Part shown: positions 21,199-58,899 of the stretch, in pieces
Numbering within the stretch: the first letter of the stretch is position 1
Layout: each line of letters opens with the position of its first letter
Source of the DNA: a virus
DNA: 64,000 nt
IMG/VR virus record: IMGVR_UViG_3300011335_000775
Span: 32,001 to 96,000 of that record
Direction: 5' to 3' (one strand)
The notes under the pieces: generated by a model
Told to the model about the DNA's origin: nothing
Seen by the model: only the letters and a program-made list of their open reading frames with translations
The model's database searches: none
Program-made: the position numbers and the translations under genes

Positions 21199-21201
21199 AG
21201 G

Positions 21202-21230
21202 TTGACCGGAATTGCAAAATCGGTTATAAT
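21202..21230 (+). promoter_or_regulatory. Early sigma70 promoter repeat 2
   Basis: TTGACC-17-TATAAT-ACATACATCGCAACAAGGAG. Confidence 0.9.
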
Positions 21231-21255
21231 ACATACATCGCAACAAGGAGTTTTT

Positions 21256-21945: not shown

Positions 21946-22170
21946 ATGAAAGTGTATTCGTTATTGGGATTTGTATCGTATGAAGGTTCGGATCTGATAG
22001 GTGTGTTTGGATCCGTAGAGGATGTGATGAAGTGTGTGCGTGAAGGTAGGTGGTTCTGTGATGAGTTGGGATACGTAGAGTCCGAACTGGGTGTGAAGAT
22101 AGAAGATGTGTTGGGTGATGTGGTGTACGTGTCCTTTGTACGCTACAACGGCAAGGTGGTAGAAGTTTAG
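21946..22170 (+). CDS. Hypothetical early protein
   Basis: GAGG RBS after the promoter. Confidence 0.7.
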   Translation: MKVYSLLGFVSYEGSDLIGVFGSVEDVMKCVREGRWFCDELGYVESELGVKIEDVLGDVVYVSFVRYNGKVVEV

Positions 22171-22171
22171 G

Positions 22172-22200
22172 TTGACCAGAATTGGCAGATCGGTTATAAT
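22172..22200 (+). promoter_or_regulatory. Early sigma70 promoter repeat 4
   Basis: TTGACCAGAATTGGCAGATCGGTTATAAT, identical to repeat 3. Confidence 0.9.
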
Positions 22201-22226
22201 ACATACATCGCAACAAGGAACACATT

Positions 22227-22563: not shown

Positions 22564-22592
22564 TTGACTGATATTGAGTTTTCGGTTATAAT
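22564..22592 (+). promoter_or_regulatory. Early sigma70 promoter repeat 5
   Basis: TTGACT-17-TATAAT. Confidence 0.85.
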
Positions 22593-22620
22593 ACATTTTT
22601 AATTTAACTTAGGAGTTTTT

Positions 22621-35778: not shown

Positions 35779-37023
35779 ATGAAGAAAATAGGATTTATTG
35801 GCATTGGTAAATTGGGATTGGATTGCGCTGAAGTCATGGCAGAGAAACATGAAGTTAGAGGCTATGATATTTACCCACGAACCAGTGACTCAGTAAAAGT
35901 TTGTGATATTAACGAATTGGTCAATGAAAGCGAATGGATTTTTATTGCTGTACCGACTCCACACGCAGAAGGATACGATGGCTCTGTGCCCAGCAGCCAT
36001 CTGACTCCGCGAGACTTTGGGCATGATGCTGTGATTGATGCCATACACAAAGTTAATCAACATGCTCGCAGTTCAAAGAAAGTGGTGTTGATTAGCACTG
36101 TGCTACCGGGCACCACACGTAAAAACTTTGTGCCATTACTGGATAAAAAGCATCAGTTCTTGTATAACCCATATCTCATTGCCATGGGGTCAGTCAAATG
36201 GGACATGGTCAATCCAGAAATGATCATGATTGGAACTGAAGATGGTGACTGGAATGGCGTTGCTGGTGAACTCAAAGATCTTTATGACACAGTGATGCAG
36301 AACAATCCACGCTACGAAATTGGCACCTGGGACGAATGCGAAGCTGTTAAAATTTTTTACAATACATTTATCTCAGCCAAAGTAGGATTGGTGAATATGG
36401 TGCAAGACTTTGCAATGAAAATTGGCAATATCAACGTGGATGTGGTCACAAACGCATTGGCACGTAGTACCATGCGTATCATGGGTCCAAAATACATGAC
36501 AGCCGGCATGGGAGACGCCGGTGCTTGCCACCCACGTGACAACATTGCACTACGCTGGTTGGCACAAGAATATGAAATCGGCTATGACCTGTTTGACACA
36601 GTGATGCATGCTCGAGAAATTCAAGCAGAAAATCTAGCCAAATTTCTAGTCGGCGAAAGTCAAGTCAATAACAATTTACCTATTGTGATTCATGGCAAAG
36701 CATACAAACCAGATGTGGCATATTGTATCGGTAGCTATTCAACCTTGGTTGGGCATTATGTTGAAAAACACGGACACAAAGTAGTATATGTTGATCCGCT
36801 GGCAGATGATCCAACTGGTGTGGTAGACCACGTTGATGGTGCTGCGGTATTCTTATGGGCACACAATCGTAAAATCACATACGAATACACCGGTGATCAA
36901 GTTGATACACAACCCTATTGTAAAATACACACAGGCAGTGTTATTGTGGATCCCTGGCGTAAACTGTCACAGACCATAGATGGTATCGAAGTGGTCCATT
37001 ATGGCAACACCCGTACAAAATAA
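35779..37023 (+). CDS. UDP-glucose/GDP-mannose dehydrogenase family protein
   Basis: GIGKLG, IAVPTP, STVLPGTT, EAVKIFYN, GACHPRD, KAYKP. Confidence 0.88.
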   Translation: MKKIGFIGIGKLGLDCAEVMAEKHEVRGYDIYPRTSDSVKVCDINELVNESEWIFIAVPTPHAEGYDGSVPSSHLTPRDFGHDAVIDAIHKVNQHARSSKKVVLISTVLPGTTRKNFVPLLDKKHQFLYNPYLIAMGSVKWDMVNPEMIMIGTEDGDWNGVAGELKDLYDTVMQNNPRYEIGTWDECEAVKIFYNTFISAKVGLVNMVQDFAMKIGNINVDVVTNALARSTMRIMGPKYMTAGMGDAGACHPRDNIALRWLAQEYEIGYDLFDTVMHAREIQAENLAKFLVGESQVNNNLPIVIHGKAYKPDVAYCIGSYSTLVGHYVEKHGHKVVYVDPLADDPTGVVDHVDGAAVFLWAHNRKITYEYTGDQVDTQPYCKIHTGSVIVDPWRKLSQTIDGIEVVHYGNTRTK

Positions 37024-38980: not shown

Positions 38981-40003
38981 ATGCATCCTCGATTTGGTTT
39001 CTGCTGCAAATGGCTCAACAATCCTGATGAAACCGGCGGTATGAAAGTCAACGCTGTTGATCGTGATATCAATGGCCGAAGTACCACCATGCGTTGGCTA
39101 CGCGAACACAAAGATCTAGCTGAACAACGTCAGTGGGATATCATGAATCACAATGCTCGTGCAGCATTGATGATGGTAGAACGTGTGGGTGCAATGGCAC
39201 CTGAACGACGTATGGTACGCCTAGGCAGTGAAATGCTACAAGGCTATACTGAACCCAGCTGGATTGCATGGTGGCAACGTCAAGAAATACAAGACCACTG
39301 TGCAAAAATCTTTGCCCCTATTGGTGAAGCTGCACGGCGACTTGGTGTGCGGATCAGTTTCCATCCAGGTCAGTTTTGTGTGTTGGCATCAGAAGCTGAT
39401 GAAATTGTAGAACGCAGTATCTTGGAATTTGAGTATCATGTGGACATGGCTCGTTGGATGGGATACGGCAGCACCTGGCATGATCACGGTTTTAAAATTA
39501 ATATACATTTGTCGGGCAAAGGCGGCCCTGCAAAGTTCCTACGCACTCTGGGTCGACTTACCCCAGAAGCTAGGAATCTAATCGCTATTGAAAATGATGA
39601 AATGACCAATGGGATCGACGTTACTTTACTTGTGGCTGAGCATTGCGCTCTTACGCTGGACATCCACCATCACTGGATCCGAACTGGAGAATACATCACT
39701 CCTACAGATGATCGCTCGCGTCGTGTTCTGGAGTCTTGGCGTGGTACTCGTCCTGCTCTTCACTATAGTGTTAGCCGTGAAGACGTTTTGGTGGATCACG
39801 ATGCCAATACTCGGCCCGACCTTGAGCAACTCCTTGCTGCTGGATACCGCAAGCAGAAACTGCGAGCTCATAGTGACTTCTTGTGGAATACGGCTGTGAC
39901 TGACTGGGCTGTGACCTTTAGTAAAGAATGGGATATGCAAGTTGAAGCCAAAGGCAAAAATCTGGCCACTGACCAATTGCACCAACATTGGCTAAGTCTG
40001 TAA
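38981..40003 (+). CDS. uvsE: UV damage endonuclease
   Basis: RISFHPGQF, INIH, IENDE, LDIHHH, RAHSD, VEAK.KN. Confidence 0.9.
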   Translation: MHPRFGFCCKWLNNPDETGGMKVNAVDRDINGRSTTMRWLREHKDLAEQRQWDIMNHNARAALMMVERVGAMAPERRMVRLGSEMLQGYTEPSWIAWWQRQEIQDHCAKIFAPIGEAARRLGVRISFHPGQFCVLASEADEIVERSILEFEYHVDMARWMGYGSTWHDHGFKINIHLSGKGGPAKFLRTLGRLTPEARNLIAIENDEMTNGIDVTLLVAEHCALTLDIHHHWIRTGEYITPTDDRSRRVLESWRGTRPALHYSVSREDVLVDHDANTRPDLEQLLAAGYRKQKLRAHSDFLWNTAVTDWAVTFSKEWDMQVEAKGKNLATDQLHQHWLSL

Positions 40004-40015
40004 CACAATTGTAAC
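39998..40015 (+). promoter_or_regulatory. Pho box-like repeat upstream of pstS
   Basis: CTGTAAC-ACAA-TTGTAAC, 11-bp period. Confidence 0.7.
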
Positions 40016-40057
40016 AATTTTGTGTTTAAATAACTATATCAACCAAAGGAAACATCA

Positions 40058-41053
40058 ATGAAAAAACTCATCGCCATGCTACTCACAGCAGTTGCATTCT
40101 CAGCAACAGCACAAGAAATTACCGGAGCCGGAGCAACATTTCCGGCTCCCCTATATTCAAAGTGGGCAAGTGATTATAATAAATCTACCAACATCAAGAT
40201 CAACTATCAATCAGTAGGATCAGGTGCAGGTATCAAACAAATTGAAGCCAAGACAGTTACATTCGGTGCCAGCGATATGCCACTGACTGATGAAAAACTA
40301 GCAGCATTGGGCTTGTTCCAATTCCCCACCGTGATTGGCGGAGTGGTACCAGTTATCAATCTCAAAGGTATTGAACCTGGACAAATGAAACTGTCCGGTC
40401 CTGTAATTGCAGACATCTTCTTGGGCAAGATTACCAAGTGGGACGACGCTGCTATCAAGACATTGAACCCCGCATTGGCATTGCCCAGTACAGATATCAC
40501 AGTTGTTCGCCGTGCAGACGGATCAGGTACAACATTTATCTGGACCAACTATCTAAGCAAAGTAAGTCGAGAGTTCAAAGATGTCATTGGTGAAGGCACT
40601 GCTGTGAGTTGGAAAGTAGGAGCAGGCGGCAAAGGCAATGAAGGTGTTGCAGCCATGGTTAGACAACTTCCAGGCACACTAGGATATGTTGAATATGCTT
40701 ATGTAAAACAAGCCAAGATGAATTGGGTCAATGTACAAAATGCAGCAGGTACATGGGTTGCACCCACAGAAGATACTTTCAAGGCAGCGGCTGCTAATGC
40801 AGACTGGAACAAGTCATACTATCAAATTCTTACCAACCAAGCAGGTAAGGAAGCATGGCCCATCACTGGTGCTACATTTATCCTGGTACACACCAAGCCA
40901 GACGATGCTGCTAAATCCAAAACTGCTATGGCTTTCTTTGATTGGGTATTTGCCAATGGTGACAAGGCCGCAGATGATTTAGATTATGTTGCTTTACCCA
41001 CAGCAGTCAAAACAAAGATCCGGGCAGATTGGAAACAGCTGGGATTGAATTAA
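40058..41053 (+). CDS. pstS: Phosphate-binding protein PstS
   Basis: GAGATFPAPLY, GSGAG, FGASD, RADGSGTT, GKGNEGV, WPI. Confidence 0.96.
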   Translation: MKKLIAMLLTAVAFSATAQEITGAGATFPAPLYSKWASDYNKSTNIKINYQSVGSGAGIKQIEAKTVTFGASDMPLTDEKLAALGLFQFPTVIGGVVPVINLKGIEPGQMKLSGPVIADIFLGKITKWDDAAIKTLNPALALPSTDITVVRRADGSGTTFIWTNYLSKVSREFKDVIGEGTAVSWKVGAGGKGNEGVAAMVRQLPGTLGYVEYAYVKQAKMNWVNVQNAAGTWVAPTEDTFKAAAANADWNKSYYQILTNQAGKEAWPITGATFILVHTKPDDAAKSKTAMAFFDWVFANGDKAADDLDYVALPTAVKTKIRADWKQLGLN

Positions 41054-41098
41054 ACCGACCGCAAAATTGGGCGGACGCTGGAACTCGTAACCAGCACT

Positions 41099-41120
41099 AA
41101 GGGCCGAAAGGCTCTTTTTT
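41099..41120 (+). terminator. Intrinsic terminator
   Basis: AGGGCC-GAAA-GGCTCT followed by a T run. Confidence 0.8.
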
Positions 41121-41172
41121 ATTGGCTTTTATTTCAATAACGGTATAAATAGTTTTTGAGGATGGGCATGTT

Positions 41173-41331
41173 ATGAAACAATCAAAATTGATCACAAAAT
41201 TATACCGGGCCTGTGTTGCTCACGATAGCGAAGCAATTGCAAAACTGCGTAAAAAAGAGTTTGAAAAAATATTAAAACACAAAGCCCAGGGCAAACTATT
41301 TACATCCAAGTGGACCTTGGTACAGATTTAA
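41173..41331 (+). CDS. 52-aa basic protein (not in the ORF track)
   Basis: TATAAATA upstream; [14 protein letters not shown]... Confidence 0.55.
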
Positions 41332-41348
41332 TGTAACACAACTGTAAC
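41331..41348 (+). promoter_or_regulatory. Pho box-like repeat upstream of the plcP-like gene
   Basis: ATGTAAC-ACAA-CTGTAAC, 11-bp period; TATGAT at 41357. Confidence 0.7.
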
Positions 41349-41380
41349 ATGATTAGTATGATTTTCTGCGTAAATACCCT

Positions 41381-42145
41381 ATGCAGAAAACATACCGATC
41401 AATCTTTGTATCTGACGTACACCTTGGTACACGAGATAGCCAAGCTGAAAAGTTAAACAATTTTCTCAAACACAACACCTGTGATACTCTCTACCTTGTG
41501 GGAGATATCATTGATGCATGGAGAATTCAACAAAACAAATGGCGCTGGAAACAAAGCCACACCAATGTGGTACGGCGTGTGCTAGGTCATGCCAAACGTG
41601 GTACCCGTGTGGTTTATATTGCAGGCAATCATGACGAATTCCTGCGCCCAATGATACCATATGGGTTCAGCTTTGGACTAGTAGAAATACACAATCAAAT
41701 TGAACATATAGGCGCAAACGGCAAACATTATCTTGTGGTACACGGAGACTTGTTTGACGGTATAACTAGACTAGCACCATGGATAGCATTTTTAGGAGAC
41801 AAGGCATATGATGTCATTTTATCGTTTAATAGCAAATTTAATTGGGTACGTCATCGTTTTGGTTTTGGGTACTTTAGTCTTAGTCAATATCTCAAAACAA
41901 GGGTAAAAAAAGCAGTAGACTTCATATTCCATTTTGAGAAGAATCTTGCTGGCTATTGTAAGAAACGTGGGTTCGATGGAGTAATCTGCGGGCACATACA
42001 TCATGCAGAGATAAAAGAGATAGACGGTGTGATCTACATGAATGACGGCGACTGGGTCGAGTCTTGTACTGCATTAGTAGAACGTCACGACGGCACGTGG
42101 GAAATAGTTACTTGGACCAAGGAGAAAGACGATGAAACTCAGTGA
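41381..42145 (+). CDS. PlcP-like phospholipase C (LpxH-like metallophosphoesterase)
   Basis: SDVHLG, LVGDIIDAW, GNHDEFLR, HGDLFD, LGDKAYD, VICGHIH, NDGDWVESCTA. Confidence 0.8.
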   Translation: MQKTYRSIFVSDVHLGTRDSQAEKLNNFLKHNTCDTLYLVGDIIDAWRIQQNKWRWKQSHTNVVRRVLGHAKRGTRVVYIAGNHDEFLRPMIPYGFSFGLVEIHNQIEHIGANGKHYLVVHGDLFDGITRLAPWIAFLGDKAYDVILSFNSKFNWVRHRFGFGYFSLSQYLKTRVKKAVDFIFHFEKNLAGYCKKRGFDGVICGHIHHAEIKEIDGVIYMNDGDWVESCTALVERHDGTWEIVTWTKEKDDETQ

Positions 42146-42842
42146 TAAAATTACTATTGTAGTACCTTGCAAAAACGAAGAAACGTATATTCATCATCTG
42201 TTGGACACGTTGCGTTCGCAGAACATTGGTGATACCAGAATCATCATCGCTGACTGTTCTACAGACAACACTAGACAAGTTATACAGGATAACAGTTTTG
42301 AATTGAATGTTGAAATAATTCCTGGTGGGACAGTTAGTGTTGCCAAGAACAACGGAGCACGATTGGCCACCACACCATACATCTTGTTCATTGACGCCGA
42401 TGTGCGTTTCTTTAAGTATGATGTGATTCGTGATGCTGTTGATAAAATTGAATCTGGCAATTTAGATCTTGTGGGATTGAACATCAAATGCTATGACCGA
42501 GACTTAAGAGCAAAAGTTGGGTTTGTTGTTTTTAACACAATTAATCACACATTGAAATATTTTTCTCCCTTTGCTGTTGGGGCATTCATGCTGACTCGTC
42601 GAGATAGATTTGAAGAATACGGTGGTTTTCCAGAAAACTTTTCAACATCAGAAGACTACTTTTTATCAAGAAAGTACAGCCCTCAGAAGTTCAAAATTGT
42701 CAGGCATCATCTTGGACAAGATAGTCGACGGTTTAAAAAGATGGGATATTTTGGCATGGCCCGATATCTTGTGACAAATTTCATCAATCGCAATAACAAA
42801 AAGTACTGGGATAAATTGGACTCAAGTAAGTATTGGAATTAA
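42132..42842 (+). CDS. GT2 glycosyltransferase
   Basis: VVPCKNEE, DCSTDNT, KNNGA, FIDAD, GGF, SED, SRR. Confidence 0.88.
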   Translation: MKLSDKITIVVPCKNEETYIHHLLDTLRSQNIGDTRIIIADCSTDNTRQVIQDNSFELNVEIIPGGTVSVAKNNGARLATTPYILFIDADVRFFKYDVIRDAVDKIESGNLDLVGLNIKCYDRDLRAKVGFVVFNTINHTLKYFSPFAVGAFMLTRRDRFEEYGGFPENFSTSEDYFLSRKYSPQKFKIVRHHLGQDSRRFKKMGYFGMARYLVTNFINRNNKKYWDKLDSSKYWN

Positions 42843-43653: not shown

Positions 43654-43884
43654 TTAAACACCCCCACGTTTACATATATCTTTGTGTAATCTATTTGAGC
43701 AATCTTGTTTTGCCCATTCCGTACAATTTACTTTACCTTCAGCAGCAGTGCTGGCCCATTGCCACTTTACACAGATCCATACTTGATCTTTTGTTAATGT
43801 GTTGGATTTTTGTTCGCTGGCAACTACCATTATCAGCAATGGAAGTAAAATAACCAACCATCTTACAATGGAAACCATAGCCAA
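43654..43884 (-). CDS. Small secreted Cys-rich protein (start uncertain)
   Basis: Hydrophobic N-terminus, 4 Cys. Confidence 0.45.
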   Translation of the reverse strand: MAMVSIVRWLVILLPLLIMVVASEQKSNTLTKDQVWICVKWQWASTAAEGKVNCTEWAKQDCSNRLHKDICKRGGV

Positions 43885-44390
43885 ATTCCTTGGCTCATTA
43901 ACACAGCACCAACCAAGCCCACACCAATACTGGCATAAAACATACCCATACTCACTGCCAGAATACTAGCACTTAACAACACAATACTGAGTTGTAATGC
44001 TGATCCTGCAAAGGTCAGCCATGGGCTGTGTTTCTTTGCTTGATCACGAGAATTTTCCAGTGACCTGGCACGAGCCATGAGTTCTTTTTTGCCTTCGCCG
44101 GTGACCGGATCACTTTCGTAACGATCAATCCGGGCAGTGAGTTCTGCTACCTTCTTGACATCATGACGTGCTAGTGCATCATCTCGGGCATTTTCTGCAA
44201 TGGTTTGCTTGATGCTTTTGCTTTGATAAAAGTTCCAGGTGTCATTGGCGCGGATGGTGTTGGTCAGCACTTCGCTGCTGAGACCATTGGCAATGTAAGT
44301 ATTCACAGCCAACATGGCTGCTATTACTGTGATTACCCAGCCTGCTCGATCTTTGATGTGTGCTTCGCGTTCACTACGTGATTCTGCCAT
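43863..44390 (-). CDS. DUF4337-like membrane protein
   Basis: ANDTWNFYQSKSIKQ, LQLSIVLLSASIL. Confidence 0.7.
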   Translation of the reverse strand: MAESRSEREAHIKDRAGWVITVIAAMLAVNTYIANGLSSEVLTNTIRANDTWNFYQSKSIKQTIAENARDDALARHDVKKVAELTARIDRYESDPVTGEGKKELMARARSLENSRDQAKKHSPWLTFAGSALQLSIVLLSASILAVSMGMFYASIGVGLVGAVLMSQGIWLWFPL

Positions 44391-50815: not shown

Positions 50816-51457
50816 TTACCAGCCGCCCAACACATAAGGATCATTAAACACTGTTTGCCCGTTGGGTCTCATCATGATGTTGCCGGGGTGCAGATCCCAC
50901 CTGATTTGTGTTTTCTGTTGGGTCTTGTGGATCAACTCCAGCAAAGTATTCAACAACAATGGAATATGATCTTCACCCACTGCTTGACTCACACGTTGAT
51001 ACTCGTCTGGATATTGTTTTGCTAGATTAAAAAAATTGGCTTTACCTTCTTCAAGAGCATAGCCCAATTTAGAAATTGCATATACCAACATCTTTTGTTG
51101 GGAAGTTCTTGGTGATTTCAATAATTCGGTACGAATCTGTAGATACAATTTTCCTTTGTATTCAAAACTGGTCCACCCTGAATACTTGGGCAAGAATGGA
51201 TTGTCTGAATTACGTTGACAAAATTCAGCCCATTTAACAAACATTTGTTGATCTTGGCTGAGGTGTTTCTTGTTGCCTTTTGTACCAAATATTTTCAAAA
51301 CTGTTTGGCCACCTGGCTCAAGATACGCCTCTTGATCTACTCCTGCTTTCAGATACTTGTAGCCTTTCTCTTCCAATTCCTTGCGAATTCCCCGGTCCAT
51401 ATTGCTGAACTCATCTAGCACCTCTTTATTTTCAACTATAACGTCTTGTATTCTCAT
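50816..51457 (-). CDS. Protein kinase-like (T7 gp0.7 type)
   Basis: AGVDQEAY, VLKIF, WDLHPGNIM, FNDP. Confidence 0.7.
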   Translation of the reverse strand: MRIQDVIVENKEVLDEFSNMDRGIRKELEEKGYKYLKAGVDQEAYLEPGGQTVLKIFGTKGNKKHLSQDQQMFVKWAEFCQRNSDNPFLPKYSGWTSFEYKGKLYLQIRTELLKSPRTSQQKMLVYAISKLGYALEEGKANFFNLAKQYPDEYQRVSQAVGEDHIPLLLNTLLELIHKTQQKTQIRWDLHPGNIMMRPNGQTVFNDPYVLGGW

Positions 51458-53004
51458 CAGGTACGTCGCTCTCTACCCAGGGTAGCACGATCCATTCTAG
51501 GTTCGTTCTTGATTCTAGCTGCCTTGGCGCCTGGGCCAGCAAGTCTTGGTGTGCTGGTAACTGCATCTAGATCTTCAGCACCAGTAGCAGCTGGAGCATT
51601 GTCCCAACTGGCTTTTCGGTATTCGGTCAGTTTTTCCAACAGCGGTCCTTTTTCAATGTAAGTGCGAACATAGATACCGCCCTTGGGTTTATTCTCTACT
51701 TTCATCCTGATGGTCAGCAGTTTACTATTAGGGTTACCGCGTTCATGAATGACCACTTCTGGCCAAGTTTTTTTATCAACGTAAGTGGCTTCAAGATCTG
51801 TATTCTTTAATTTTTCAACCAGCTTGTTGAATCTCAAAATCTTGAATCCACCATCGCTGAAGTCCACCAGTTCAACGTTGGGATCGCCTAGTGTGGCAAA
51901 GTGTGTGATACCAGTGGCAATGTCATCAATTATGTTGGCTTCATCTTCAGGGCTGGCGTTTTTCAATTCGTTGTCTAGTTCGGTAGCAGCATATTGATAT
52001 ATTTGTTTGAATGCATCTCTGGTTGCTGTTGGTGAATTGGATTTCATTGCCTTGGTAAATTTGGCCAACGCAGAACTTGCATCAACACCAAAATAATTCC
52101 ATAAGATCTGTTGGGTTTCTGCACTGTCGCCACCCACTTGTCCAAACTGTTTAATACCACCTACCTTGAGACTGGTATTGAGTCTGAGTTTGCGTGGCTG
52201 GCCATTTTCATCAGTGACAAACACCCACACATCGGTCTTTTGTTCTGTTTCACCAGTGACACCGTCAGCCATGATCACGATCTGATCTGACCTGCCATTG
52301 ATGTAGAAATACTTGCTGTATCGTTCAGCGTCCGAACTGTTGACATAAGCAGCGGCACTGGAGAATTCACTGGCCAACAGCGGTCGCTTGGCCAGATCCA
52401 TGAGATCCTGATACGGCCCGGATTTAAGTCTCAGCACAAACGAAATCACATCCGCATGTTCATTATCAAAATCTTCCACTTCCACTTGATATTGGTCTTC
52501 ACCGGTTTGCTTCAAACTGTCAAGCACATTGCCGATATCCTGAGCGGTCACTGTGCCGATATCTTCGTCAGATTCACGTTTGGTGAATTTAGCAAACATA
52601 GCAGCGCCCAGGATACCTTCGGCTGTTTCGCCGCGATTGGCAATTTTTCCAACATCGTCGTCGGCAGTGGCTCCAGTATACACATTGAACGCTGCCCCAA
52701 TGGTACTAGAACTGCCAACAATCAAAACAGATTGCCCAGCATTGTTGGAAAAAATATAACCGTCGCCGCCTTTTCCATAGGTAACTGTGGGGAGATTTAA
52801 AATATCTTTTTCGCCCAATTCTGTGTCGTCTTGCCTGGTCAATGGCGGAGTAGCATCAAATCCTTGTTGCTGCAACAATGTCAGTAACTTTTTTCCAGCT
52901 TCTGACCCTGCGGAAACAGAAAATTGAGTTCCGGGTCCATATTTGGGTTTACTGATGGTCACTTCAGTTATTATGCTGTCAAGTACGTTGATTAAATCTC
53001 TCAT
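51457..53004 (-). CDS. Late protein, possible PD-(D/E)XK-like nuclease domain
   Basis: NRGETAEG, KTDVWV...TSLK; late promoter 4 nt upstream. Confidence 0.5.
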   Translation of the reverse strand: MRDLINVLDSIITEVTISKPKYGPGTQFSVSAGSEAGKKLLTLLQQQGFDATPPLTRQDDTELGEKDILNLPTVTYGKGGDGYIFSNNAGQSVLIVGSSSTIGAAFNVYTGATADDDVGKIANRGETAEGILGAAMFAKFTKRESDEDIGTVTAQDIGNVLDSLKQTGEDQYQVEVEDFDNEHADVISFVLRLKSGPYQDLMDLAKRPLLASEFSSAAAYVNSSDAERYSKYFYINGRSDQIVIMADGVTGETEQKTDVWVFVTDENGQPRKLRLNTSLKVGGIKQFGQVGGDSAETQQILWNYFGVDASSALAKFTKAMKSNSPTATRDAFKQIYQYAATELDNELKNASPEDEANIIDDIATGITHFATLGDPNVELVDFSDGGFKILRFNKLVEKLKNTDLEATYVDKKTWPEVVIHERGNPNSKLLTIRMKVENKPKGGIYVRTYIEKGPLLEKLTEYRKASWDNAPAATGAEDLDAVTSTPRLAGPGAKAARIKNEPRMDRATLGRERRT

Positions 53005-53098
53005 GTGGTATTTAGCGAAGAATAAATTCCTTACCAAAATCACTTGCTATTAAATAAAATACACTGTAAAATAACACAACCAAACAACAAGGAATTTA

Positions 53099-55588: not shown

Positions 55589-55617
55589 TTGACCGGATTT
55601 GTCAAATCCACTATAAT
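55589..55617 (+). promoter_or_regulatory. Early sigma70 promoter
   Basis: TTGACC-17-TATAAT-ACATACATACGCAGCAAC; upstream block matches the one before 20976. Confidence 0.9.
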
Positions 55618-55650
55618 ACATACATACGCAGCAACAAACCGGAGTTAGAT

Positions 55651-58820: not shown

Positions 58821-58877
58821 AAAAACCCTGCCTGGCGCAGGGTTTTTCTTGACCGCAAATTGCAGTTCATGTATAAT
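58821..58877 (+). promoter_or_regulatory. Terminator immediately followed by an early promoter
   Basis: AAAAACCCTGC..GCAGGGTTTTT, then TTGACC-17-TATAAT. Confidence 0.85.
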
Positions 58878-58899
58878 ACAGCAATAAAGGAATTGATCA

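Follow-up and report, generated by a model that had tools for sequence, protein, structure and literature searches.

The system closest to the locus described here is the bacterial PlcP-Agt operon, known from Sinorhizobium (Ensifer) meliloti, Phaeobacter MED193, SAR11 HTCC7211, P. aeruginosa (PA3219-PA3218), Methylosinus OB3b and B. cenocepacia. The operon has been characterized in several bacteria (PMC4796936; PMC8528852; PMC9239053; PMC13691135), where plcP is Pho-regulated (PMC4796936; PMC8528852). A viral precedent is provided by cyanophages, which exploit the host two-component system to induce phage genes under low phosphate, and control of T4-like cyanophage genes by host PhoBR has been published (PMC10976474). 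The present locus lies in a stretch of viral DNA of 64,000 nucleotides (the window), corresponding to positions 32001-96000 of the 113.8 kb IMG/VR record IMGVR_UViG_3300011335_000775. It comprises pstS, a gene for a PlcP-type metallophosphoesterase (the 41381 protein, named after its start position) and an overlapping gene for a small family 2 glycosyltransferase (GT2; the 42132 protein). Both pstS and the plcP-GT2 pair are preceded by a Pho-box-like direct repeat and by TAAATA, the motif of T4-type late promoters (Table 1), an arrangement which suggests that phages take phosphorus from host membranes.

The source record is 33% complete according to CheckV, which at 113.8 kb indicates a jumbo phage of roughly 340 kb; its close relatives reach up to 345-524 kb at 99-100% completeness. 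The window has a G+C content of 42.5%, encodes ribonucleotide reductase, ATP-dependent DNA ligase, UvdE and radical-SAM proteins, and its DNA is present in public river and lake metagenome runs. The phage is a freshwater T4-like jumbo phage of lytic type, whose host is taken as Gram-negative. Strong homologues of gp55 are present in smaller records (127-188 kb) with plcP-agt as well, which identifies these as true T4-like phages. More than 598 stretches in IMG/VR match the PlcP of the window, and 109 more match the PlcP type of the Pelagibacter phage Mosig. Gene neighborhoods were compared in the 80 closest phage loci (close set; PlcP 86-93% identical to that of the window), 80 more distant phage loci (distant set) and 80 loci of bacterial PlcP-like proteins (bacterial set).

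PlcP and the glycosyltransferase slot behind it

The 41381 protein matches the metallophosphoesterase family PF00149 (E 2e-11). A preliminary description of this DNA, made from its letters, had recognized PlcP-type motifs in it. The calcineurin-like metal-binding motifs are all intact (DxH, GD, GNH[DE], H, GH and GHxH), with residues D12, H14, D42, N83, H84, H121, H205 and H207 invariant over 30 sequences from phages and bacteria. The best matches among bacteria (50-59% identity) occur in Hyphomonas, Caulobacter, Mesorhizobium, Bradyrhizobium, Labrenzia, Methylotenera, Thiobacillus, Chromobacterium and Pseudomonas, and an Agt-type glycosyltransferase of family 4 (GT4) is the next gene in 59 of the 80 loci of the bacterial set. 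This level of identity falls inside the range of the family, given that PA3219 is reported as 46% identical to the S. meliloti PlcP (PMC8528852) and the OB3b PlcP 51% identical to the HTCC7211 enzyme (PMC9239053).

The 42132 gene overlaps plcP by 14 nt while retaining its own Shine-Dalgarno sequence, and appears translationally coupled to it. Both the overlap and the assignment of the product to GT2 rather than GT4 agree with the preliminary description. The protein matches PF00535 (E 2e-21, 77 bits), and its structure model (pLDDT 96.4) combines a GT-A core with basic helices at the C-terminus behind it and has no transmembrane segments. It belongs to a family of proteins of about 235 aa, matched by 1,391 cluster representatives at E-values up to 1e-10, in which D88, D90, E174 and D175 (the DxD and ED motifs) and an RRFKK motif are conserved. 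Agt enzymes, which transfer glucosyl or glucuronosyl groups to diacylglycerol, are defined by a GT-B fold with GT4 and Glycos_transf_1 domains, which places the 42132 protein outside the Agt family, though it may be Agt-like in action. A prediction of a PlcP-GT2 complex scored 0.00, which is evidence in neither direction.

The strongest pointer to the function of GT2 is the slot that its gene occupies. In the close set, GT2 follows plcP in 65 of 80 loci and an Agt-like GT4 takes the same place in 12, with a GT4 lying 1 kb further in one more; these GT4 proteins are 39-43% identical to the Agt of Pseudomonas and Mesorhizobium. The proportions are reversed in the distant set (GT4 in 46 of 80 loci, GT2 in 14), and on the PlcP tree loci with one type of partner are interspersed with loci of the other. 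That the GT4/GT2 swap repeats in one slot is the chief ground for proposing the role of Agt for GT2, and the prediction from these sequences that it glycosylates diacylglycerol is slightly favored here.

A number of observations weigh against this prediction. By sequence and fold, GT2 is nearest to generic GT-A enzymes (TarS, TarP, PcManGT, WrtF and chondroitin synthase), its near-invariant basic RRFKK motif could fit a lipid-phosphate acceptor instead, and a GT2-like gene is found within 5 kb of plcP in none of the 80 bacterial loci; the same search found no PstS-like gene. These points, together with nearest solved relatives that include GtrB-type enzymes and PHROG matches that include GtrB-like O-antigen conversion, favor an alternative in which PlcP scavenges phosphorus or remodels the envelope while GT2 acts on an acceptor other than diacylglycerol, such as polyprenyl phosphate, an intermediate of lipopolysaccharide or capsule, or a teichoic-acid-like polymer, for example in a surface change that blocks superinfection. 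This is fairly unlikely, given that GT2 alternates with Agt-like GT4 in an identical slot behind nearly identical plcP genes and is apparently coupled to plcP in translation. GT2 also passes the cut-off of PF13506 (Glyco_transf_21; 32.3 bits vs 21.7), by a match that is weaker than the overlapping one to PF00535 and comes from a protein of only 236 aa. Family GT21 presumably includes the diacylglycerol glycosyltransferase Pgt. In some bacteria Pgt adjoins plcP (PMC4796936). The closest non-phage GT2 cluster (P0125) had no match in viral contigs and one truncated close match in metagenome contigs.

Repeats and late promoters upstream of pstS and plcP

The product of pstS is a genuine PstS, as first proposed, scoring above the equivalog cut-offs of NF008171 (433.6 bits vs 339) and TIGR00975 (398.7 bits vs 205) and also matching phrog_5385. 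Its gene has a leader of 25 nt with the Shine-Dalgarno sequence AAGGAAA at 40047-40053. Linkage of pstS to plcP extends beyond the window, in which the two are adjacent, to several relatives with varied arrangements and to the cultured Pelagibacter phage Mosig, in which they are divergent.

The two repeats reported in the preliminary description are present letter for letter at the positions given in Table 1. They are identical at 17 of 18 nt and rank first among the direct-repeat families of the region, and the exact sequence TGTAAC-N5-TGTAAC occurs in only two copies in the entire 113.8 kb record, both of them at promoters. When one mismatch is allowed, the window holds three matches against 0.45 expected, a number reached by none of 100 shuffles. 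The geometry is that of a Pho box, with two 7-bp direct repeats at an 11-bp period, an A/T-rich 4-bp spacer and a location on the coding strand, in the form CTGTAAC-ACAA-TTGTAAC-N11-TAAATA. Only two of the 42 TAAATA sites in the window are accompanied by the box, the other 40 lacking it even at two mismatches.

The -10 element at both boxes is best read as a T4-type late promoter, not a sigma-70 promoter, because each of three complete relatives has a gene for a late sigma factor resembling gp55 (phrog_234, E ~1e-22); no gp55-like gene was found in the 33%-complete record of the window. Two promoter classes can be distinguished in the window, namely strong sigma-70 promoters (TTGACC-N17-TATAAT) and TAAATA or TATAAATA, the latter class lying at most 80 nt 5' of 28 of the 110 ORFs and often 4-5 nt from the ATG. 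A sigma-70 reading at the plcP box (GTAACA-18-TATGAT) was dropped, being unconserved in relatives. The short distance between TAAATA and the start codon of the 41381 gene implies a leaderless or near-leaderless mRNA.

Table 1. Features of the pstS and plcP-GT2 locus, in window coordinates
Feature	Position	Strand	Remark
Pho-box-like direct repeat 1, CTGTAAC-ACAA-TTGTAAC	39998..40015	+	5' of pstS
TAAATA, T4-type late promoter -10 motif	40027..40032	+	11 nt after repeat 1
pstS, periplasmic phosphate-binding protein	40058..41053	+	N-terminal signal peptide
Hairpin GCTGGAACTCGTAACCAGC followed by intrinsic terminator	41077..41124	+	Terminator stem 41099-41116, then T run; end of pstS unit
Late promoter of the 52-aa ORF, TATAAATA	41144..41151	+	Box absent
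Conserved 52-aa ORF	41173..41331	+	Repeat 2 starts at the final base of its stop codon
Pho-box-like direct repeat 2, ATGTAAC-ACAA-CTGTAAC	41331..41348	+	5' of plcP-GT2
TAAATA, late promoter motif	41371..41376	+	22 nt after repeat 2; 4 nt before ATG of 41381
plcP-type metallophosphoesterase, LpxH-like fold	41381..42145	+	Candidate phospholipase C
Small GT2 glycosyltransferase, GT-A fold	42132..42842	+	236 aa; in the Agt (GT4) slot of relatives

The combination of box and late promoter recurs in related phages. Among 56 distinct plcP upstream sequences from 80 related IMG/VR loci, 30 have a proximal TAAATA, and 27 of these carry TGTMAY-N5-TGTMAY with at most one mismatch; a further 25 have neither box nor TAAATA, because plcP abuts the preceding gene. 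Every pstS found in related loci, including a second type 48-52% identical, has the box in the form TGTMAY-N5-TGTMAY followed by N11-TAAATA. The plcP-GT2 pair is likewise conserved in relatives; co-occurrence of box, plcP and glycosyltransferase had been put forward as a check in the preliminary description. Across 35 distinct viral promoters, TAAATA follows the box after 11 nt (24 promoters), 21 nt (7) or 22 nt (4), and never after 10, 12 or 23 nt, indicating that the box is kept on a single face of the helix. With at most one mismatch, box-N11-TAAATA occurs at seven sites in 1.6 Mb of sequence (five phage records) and at one in the reversed control; the seven sites belong to plcP, pstS and one gene for a 215-aa coiled-coil protein rich in Ala, Val and Glu. 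Half-sites in relatives read TGTAAC, TGTAAT, TGTCAC or TGTCAT, and include exact TGTCAC-N5-TGTCAC as well as hybrids that pair, for example, TGTAAC with TGTCAC (TGTAACATCACTGTCAC), so that a single binding protein appears to accept the A and the C version alike. Other lineages have different repeats of 11-bp period before plcP, namely TTAACA-N5-TTAACA in Mosig and two further loci (L232/L233) and TTTAAT-N5-CGTAAT followed by TATAAT in L289-L300, which fits the idea of host-specific sites. These results support the repeats as a specific regulatory element common to pstS and plcP, with the geometry of a Pho box.

The element can be compared with bacterial promoters. The upstream regions of 12 bacterial pstS genes, 58-67% identical to that of the phage, mostly read TGTCAY-N5-TGTCAY-N10-TAAAGT, TACAGT or TAGAGT, and the phage box agrees with them in orientation, 11-bp period, A/T-rich spacer and, to within 1 bp, position. 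The sequence CTGTAATATATCTTTAAC, which includes CTGTAAT, lies upstream of E. coli phoE and is what we take to be its Pho box; if so, an A at that position of the half-site is tolerated by PhoB. A search of three complete relatives for the OmpR/PhoB winged-helix domain (PF00486) yielded none, making a host factor the likelier reader of the box. Judged from these sequences, host PhoB probably controls both the pstS and the plcP-GT2 units.

Several findings stand against PhoB control. The resemblance to the PhoB box claimed in the preliminary description holds for geometry, position and association with pstS and plcP, and breaks down at the half-site, since all four half-sites in the window read TGTAAC instead of canonical TGTCAY, and so depart from the TGTCA core. 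The TGTAAC half-site is absent from all 32 bacterial pstS upstream regions searched (12 plus 20 more, many of the latter lying behind a porin gene, so that the sequences examined miss the promoters). Across complete relatives, the bare box is no more frequent than its reversed control, only box plus promoter being specific. To our knowledge, PhoB acts through sigma-70 only, and the promoters here are of gp55 type. Pho-box prediction in phages has, moreover, been called unreliable (PMC10976474).

Some of the same evidence favors an alternative in which the enzymes act as described and the repeats are read by some other factor, whether a different regulator of the OmpR family in the host or an unrecognized phage protein, which would tune a few late genes, so that the link to phosphate becomes optional. 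It is consistent with the divergent half-site, with the gp55-type promoter and with the third box-bearing gene of the relatives, whose coiled-coil product has no known connection to phosphate. On the opposite strand the half-site reads GTTACA, which we assume to be like the half-sites of other OmpR-family regulators. This alternative is nonetheless unlikely, for the box is invariably associated with pstS, which is the archetype of a Pho gene, and with plcP, a gene under Pho control in bacteria (PMC4796936; PMC8528852); exact TGTCAC-N5-TGTCAC and hybrid boxes stand at the same position in relatives; orientation, period, spacer and -10 distance match host Pho promoters; and the three complete relatives lack any PhoB/OmpR-type domain of their own.

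Further features of these promoters and transcripts can be described. Three complete relatives encode the coiled-coil protein, at 215-218 aa, behind a perfect box-N11-TAAATA promoter (L193:790-1437:-, L194:780-1436:-, L190:1582-2235:+), and its gene is directly 3' of plcP-GT2 in two of the three; the protein matches no family and has no homologue in the window. In six genes of the window, all lacking a Shine-Dalgarno sequence, TAAATA is separated from the ATG by only 4-5 nt (4332, 4746, 17498, 29416 and 41381 on the plus strand, and 51457-53043 on the minus strand), and several therefore look leaderless if TAAATA is a gp55-type -10 element, which would be unusual for a T4-like phage. The terminator at 41099-41124 divides the pstS unit from the plcP-GT2 unit. 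The hairpin GCTGGAACTCGTAACCAGC and the GC-rich terminator are nearly unchanged in relatives (L009, L016, L021, L190, L193, L194), where they lie 3' of pstS, 3' of the box-regulated coiled-coil gene or 5' of plcP, as if the terminator module travels with these cassettes. Near-identical strong sigma-70 promoters of the form GGTTGACC-N17-TATAATACATACATCGCAACAAGGAG precede small genes at 21200-21255, 22170-22226, 22565-22620, 55595-55650 and 58845-58899, and are probably early promoters spread by duplication.

Separation from LpxH, and the proposed module

The 41381 protein belongs to the fold class of LpxH, that of calcineurin-like metallophosphoesterases with an inserted lipid-binding helical cap. 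Its model (pLDDT 80.6) has an LpxH-like fold with a helical cap, and its top 25 matches in the PDB are all LpxH (TM ~0.55). Its sequence is only 16-21% identical to LpxH and misses every LpxH model cut-off, with 44.4 bits vs 134 for NF003743 and 33.8 vs 190 for TIGR01854 (42 bits in the genome search). In bacteria, PlcP is a separate paralogue beside LpxH: all four plcP-agt genomes checked have a true LpxH of 280-333 bits, and the PlcP-like copy, where detected (three of the four), scores 27-54 bits on LpxH models, similar to the phage protein. On the tree, a long branch with 100% support parts LpxH, counted as three sequences with the Chromobacterium LpxH row left out, from the PlcP-like and phage proteins. 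The phylogeny proposed in the preliminary description as a test thus places the 41381 protein on the PlcP side, the PlcP references being defined by plcP-agt context; the tree was built without the characterized PlcPs (SMc00171, PA3219 and PB7211_983), and orthology rests on that context and on the identity levels in the literature. Grouping of the 41381 protein with PlcP and not with LpxH is supported, and the protein is predicted to be a phospholipase C, the activity of PlcP being Mn-dependent cleavage of phospholipids to diacylglycerol. That it is instead an LpxH-type UDP-2,3-diacylglucosamine hydrolase of lipid A metabolism, as the names of homologues (at JGI, and in GenBank for Mosig and S-SRM01) and the nearest solved structure would have it, is very improbable in view of the scores of 34-44 bits, the coexistence of true LpxH with the PlcP-like copy, the fully supported split and the location of its bacterial orthologues in plcP-agt operons.

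Some bacterial PlcP-like proteins with no agt neighbor fall inside the viral clade, from Hyphomonas (L087-L089), Methylotenera (L091) and Arcobacteraceae (L148); they may be prophage-borne, or phage-derived by transfer.

The full proposal of a PhoB-boosted late module, coupling uptake through PstS to lipid remodeling by PlcP and GT2, is modestly favored. The module would consist of two transcription units, pstS and plcP-GT2, each driven by the late motif TAAATA. Phosphorylated PhoB of the host would most likely bind the 7-bp repeat pairs one or two helical turns upstream, so that both units would be boosted only in a phosphate-starved infected cell. From what is known of its family and from the cyanophage precedent, PstS would be exported to the periplasm and supply the host PstCAB importer. 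PlcP, by orthology, would strip phosphate-bearing head groups from membrane phospholipids to leave diacylglycerol, with the released phosphorus becoming available for phage DNA synthesis. GT2, as the swap in its gene slot suggests, may turn the diacylglycerol into a phosphorus-free glycolipid, so that the membrane holds until lysis. A broader generalization, advanced tentatively, is that freshwater and marine phages widely encode lipid remodeling by PlcP with either Agt or a small GT2 not recognized before as a diacylglycerol glycosyltransferase, that host PhoB acts on them at a gp55-type late promoter independent of sigma-70, and that in infected, phosphate-starved cells phosphorus from membrane phospholipid passes into phage DNA.

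If correct, the proposal has several consequences. The phosphorus genes known from phages, pstS, phoA and phoH, have roles that concern uptake or are unclear; with a PlcP-glycosyltransferase pair, phages would gain a source inside the cell in the form of membrane phospholipids, which are a sizeable cellular phosphorus pool. Part of the phosphorus-free glycolipid in phosphorus-limited waters could then arise under viral control. A new candidate family of diacylglycerol glycosyltransferases is suggested by the GT4/GT2 swap behind plcP genes that are nearly identical. How a response regulator could activate a gp55-type promoter is a further question, posed by a Pho-box-like element at a fixed distance of one or two helical turns. 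The element is common, and because it is also found in a cultured phage-host pair (that of Pelagibacter phage Mosig), the idea is directly testable.

Neighboring genes include the conserved 52-aa ORF, which matches no family in library searches; its homologues (56-88% identity) lie directly 5' of plcP in at least 15 related loci. Positions 35779-37023, 3 kb upstream of the module, encode an NDP-sugar dehydrogenase of the UDP-glucose/GDP-mannose dehydrogenase family (phrog_9148), which, if it produces UDP-glucuronate, could, speculatively, feed synthesis of lipids of the glucuronosyl-diacylglycerol type. A DUF4337 protein (43863-44390, minus strand) adjoins the module, and its homologues frequently flank the plcP of relatives.

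Comparison with known systems

Full-text searches turned up publications about PlcP of bacteria and about pstS of phages, and none on phage plcP or phage lipid remodeling; the preliminary description likewise knew of no characterized phage lipid-remodeling system. Homologues in deposited phage genomes carry the annotation LpxH.

The phage module shares with the bacterial PlcP-Agt operon a Pho-box-like repeat upstream of a gene for an LpxH-like metallophosphoesterase, directly behind which comes a glycosyltransferase gene, and its PlcP is 50-59% identical to bacterial PlcP-like proteins with an agt neighbor. Unlike the bacterial operon, it is carried by a lytic-type jumbo phage, has a T4-type late promoter and uses the TGTAAC half-site. 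The partner also differs, being a 236-aa GT2 of GT-A fold in place of the bacterial GT4 Agt of GT-B fold; by family classification, GT2 enzymes are inverting and GT4 enzymes retaining. The operon partners known for PlcP are genes of lipid synthesis that use up diacylglycerol (agt, pgt, btaAB). Partners other than Agt have precedents in Pgt (GT21) and UgtP-type enzymes, which stand beside plcP in some bacteria (types 3 and 5 in PMC4796936; PMC9239053). The phage GT2, while passing the Pfam GT21 cut-off, is much smaller than these and best matches generic GT2 families.

As in the cyanophages P-SSM2 and S-PM2d, with their pstS and phoA genes, the phage is T4-like and has pstS behind putative Pho boxes of host type. 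The putative box is of the proteobacterial CTGTCAT type, in contrast to the cyanobacterial PyTTAAPyPy(T/A); the window module further adds a lipid-cleaving enzyme and a glycosyltransferase. A cultured counterpart is the T4-like phage Mosig EXVC030M. Its gene Mosig_00120, which bears the annotation of a putative UDP-2,3-diacylglucosamine hydrolase, encodes a PlcP-type protein 47% identical to that of the window and is divergent from pstS, with TTAACA-N5-TTAACA repeats of 11-bp period. Mosig differs in its marine SAR11 host, its other half-site and a plcP without a following glycosyltransferase. In the spacer between its pstS and plcP (L001:4842-4991), the TTAACA half-site occurs several times, including one pair at a distance of 11 bp, and ATAAATA precedes the plcP-like ATG by 7 nt, which makes the spacer a testable candidate for a Pho element of a cultured phage. 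Bacteria and cyanophages already provide the components of the module and its logic; new are its location on a phage, a GT2 as the partner, the variant of the half-site and the link to a late promoter.

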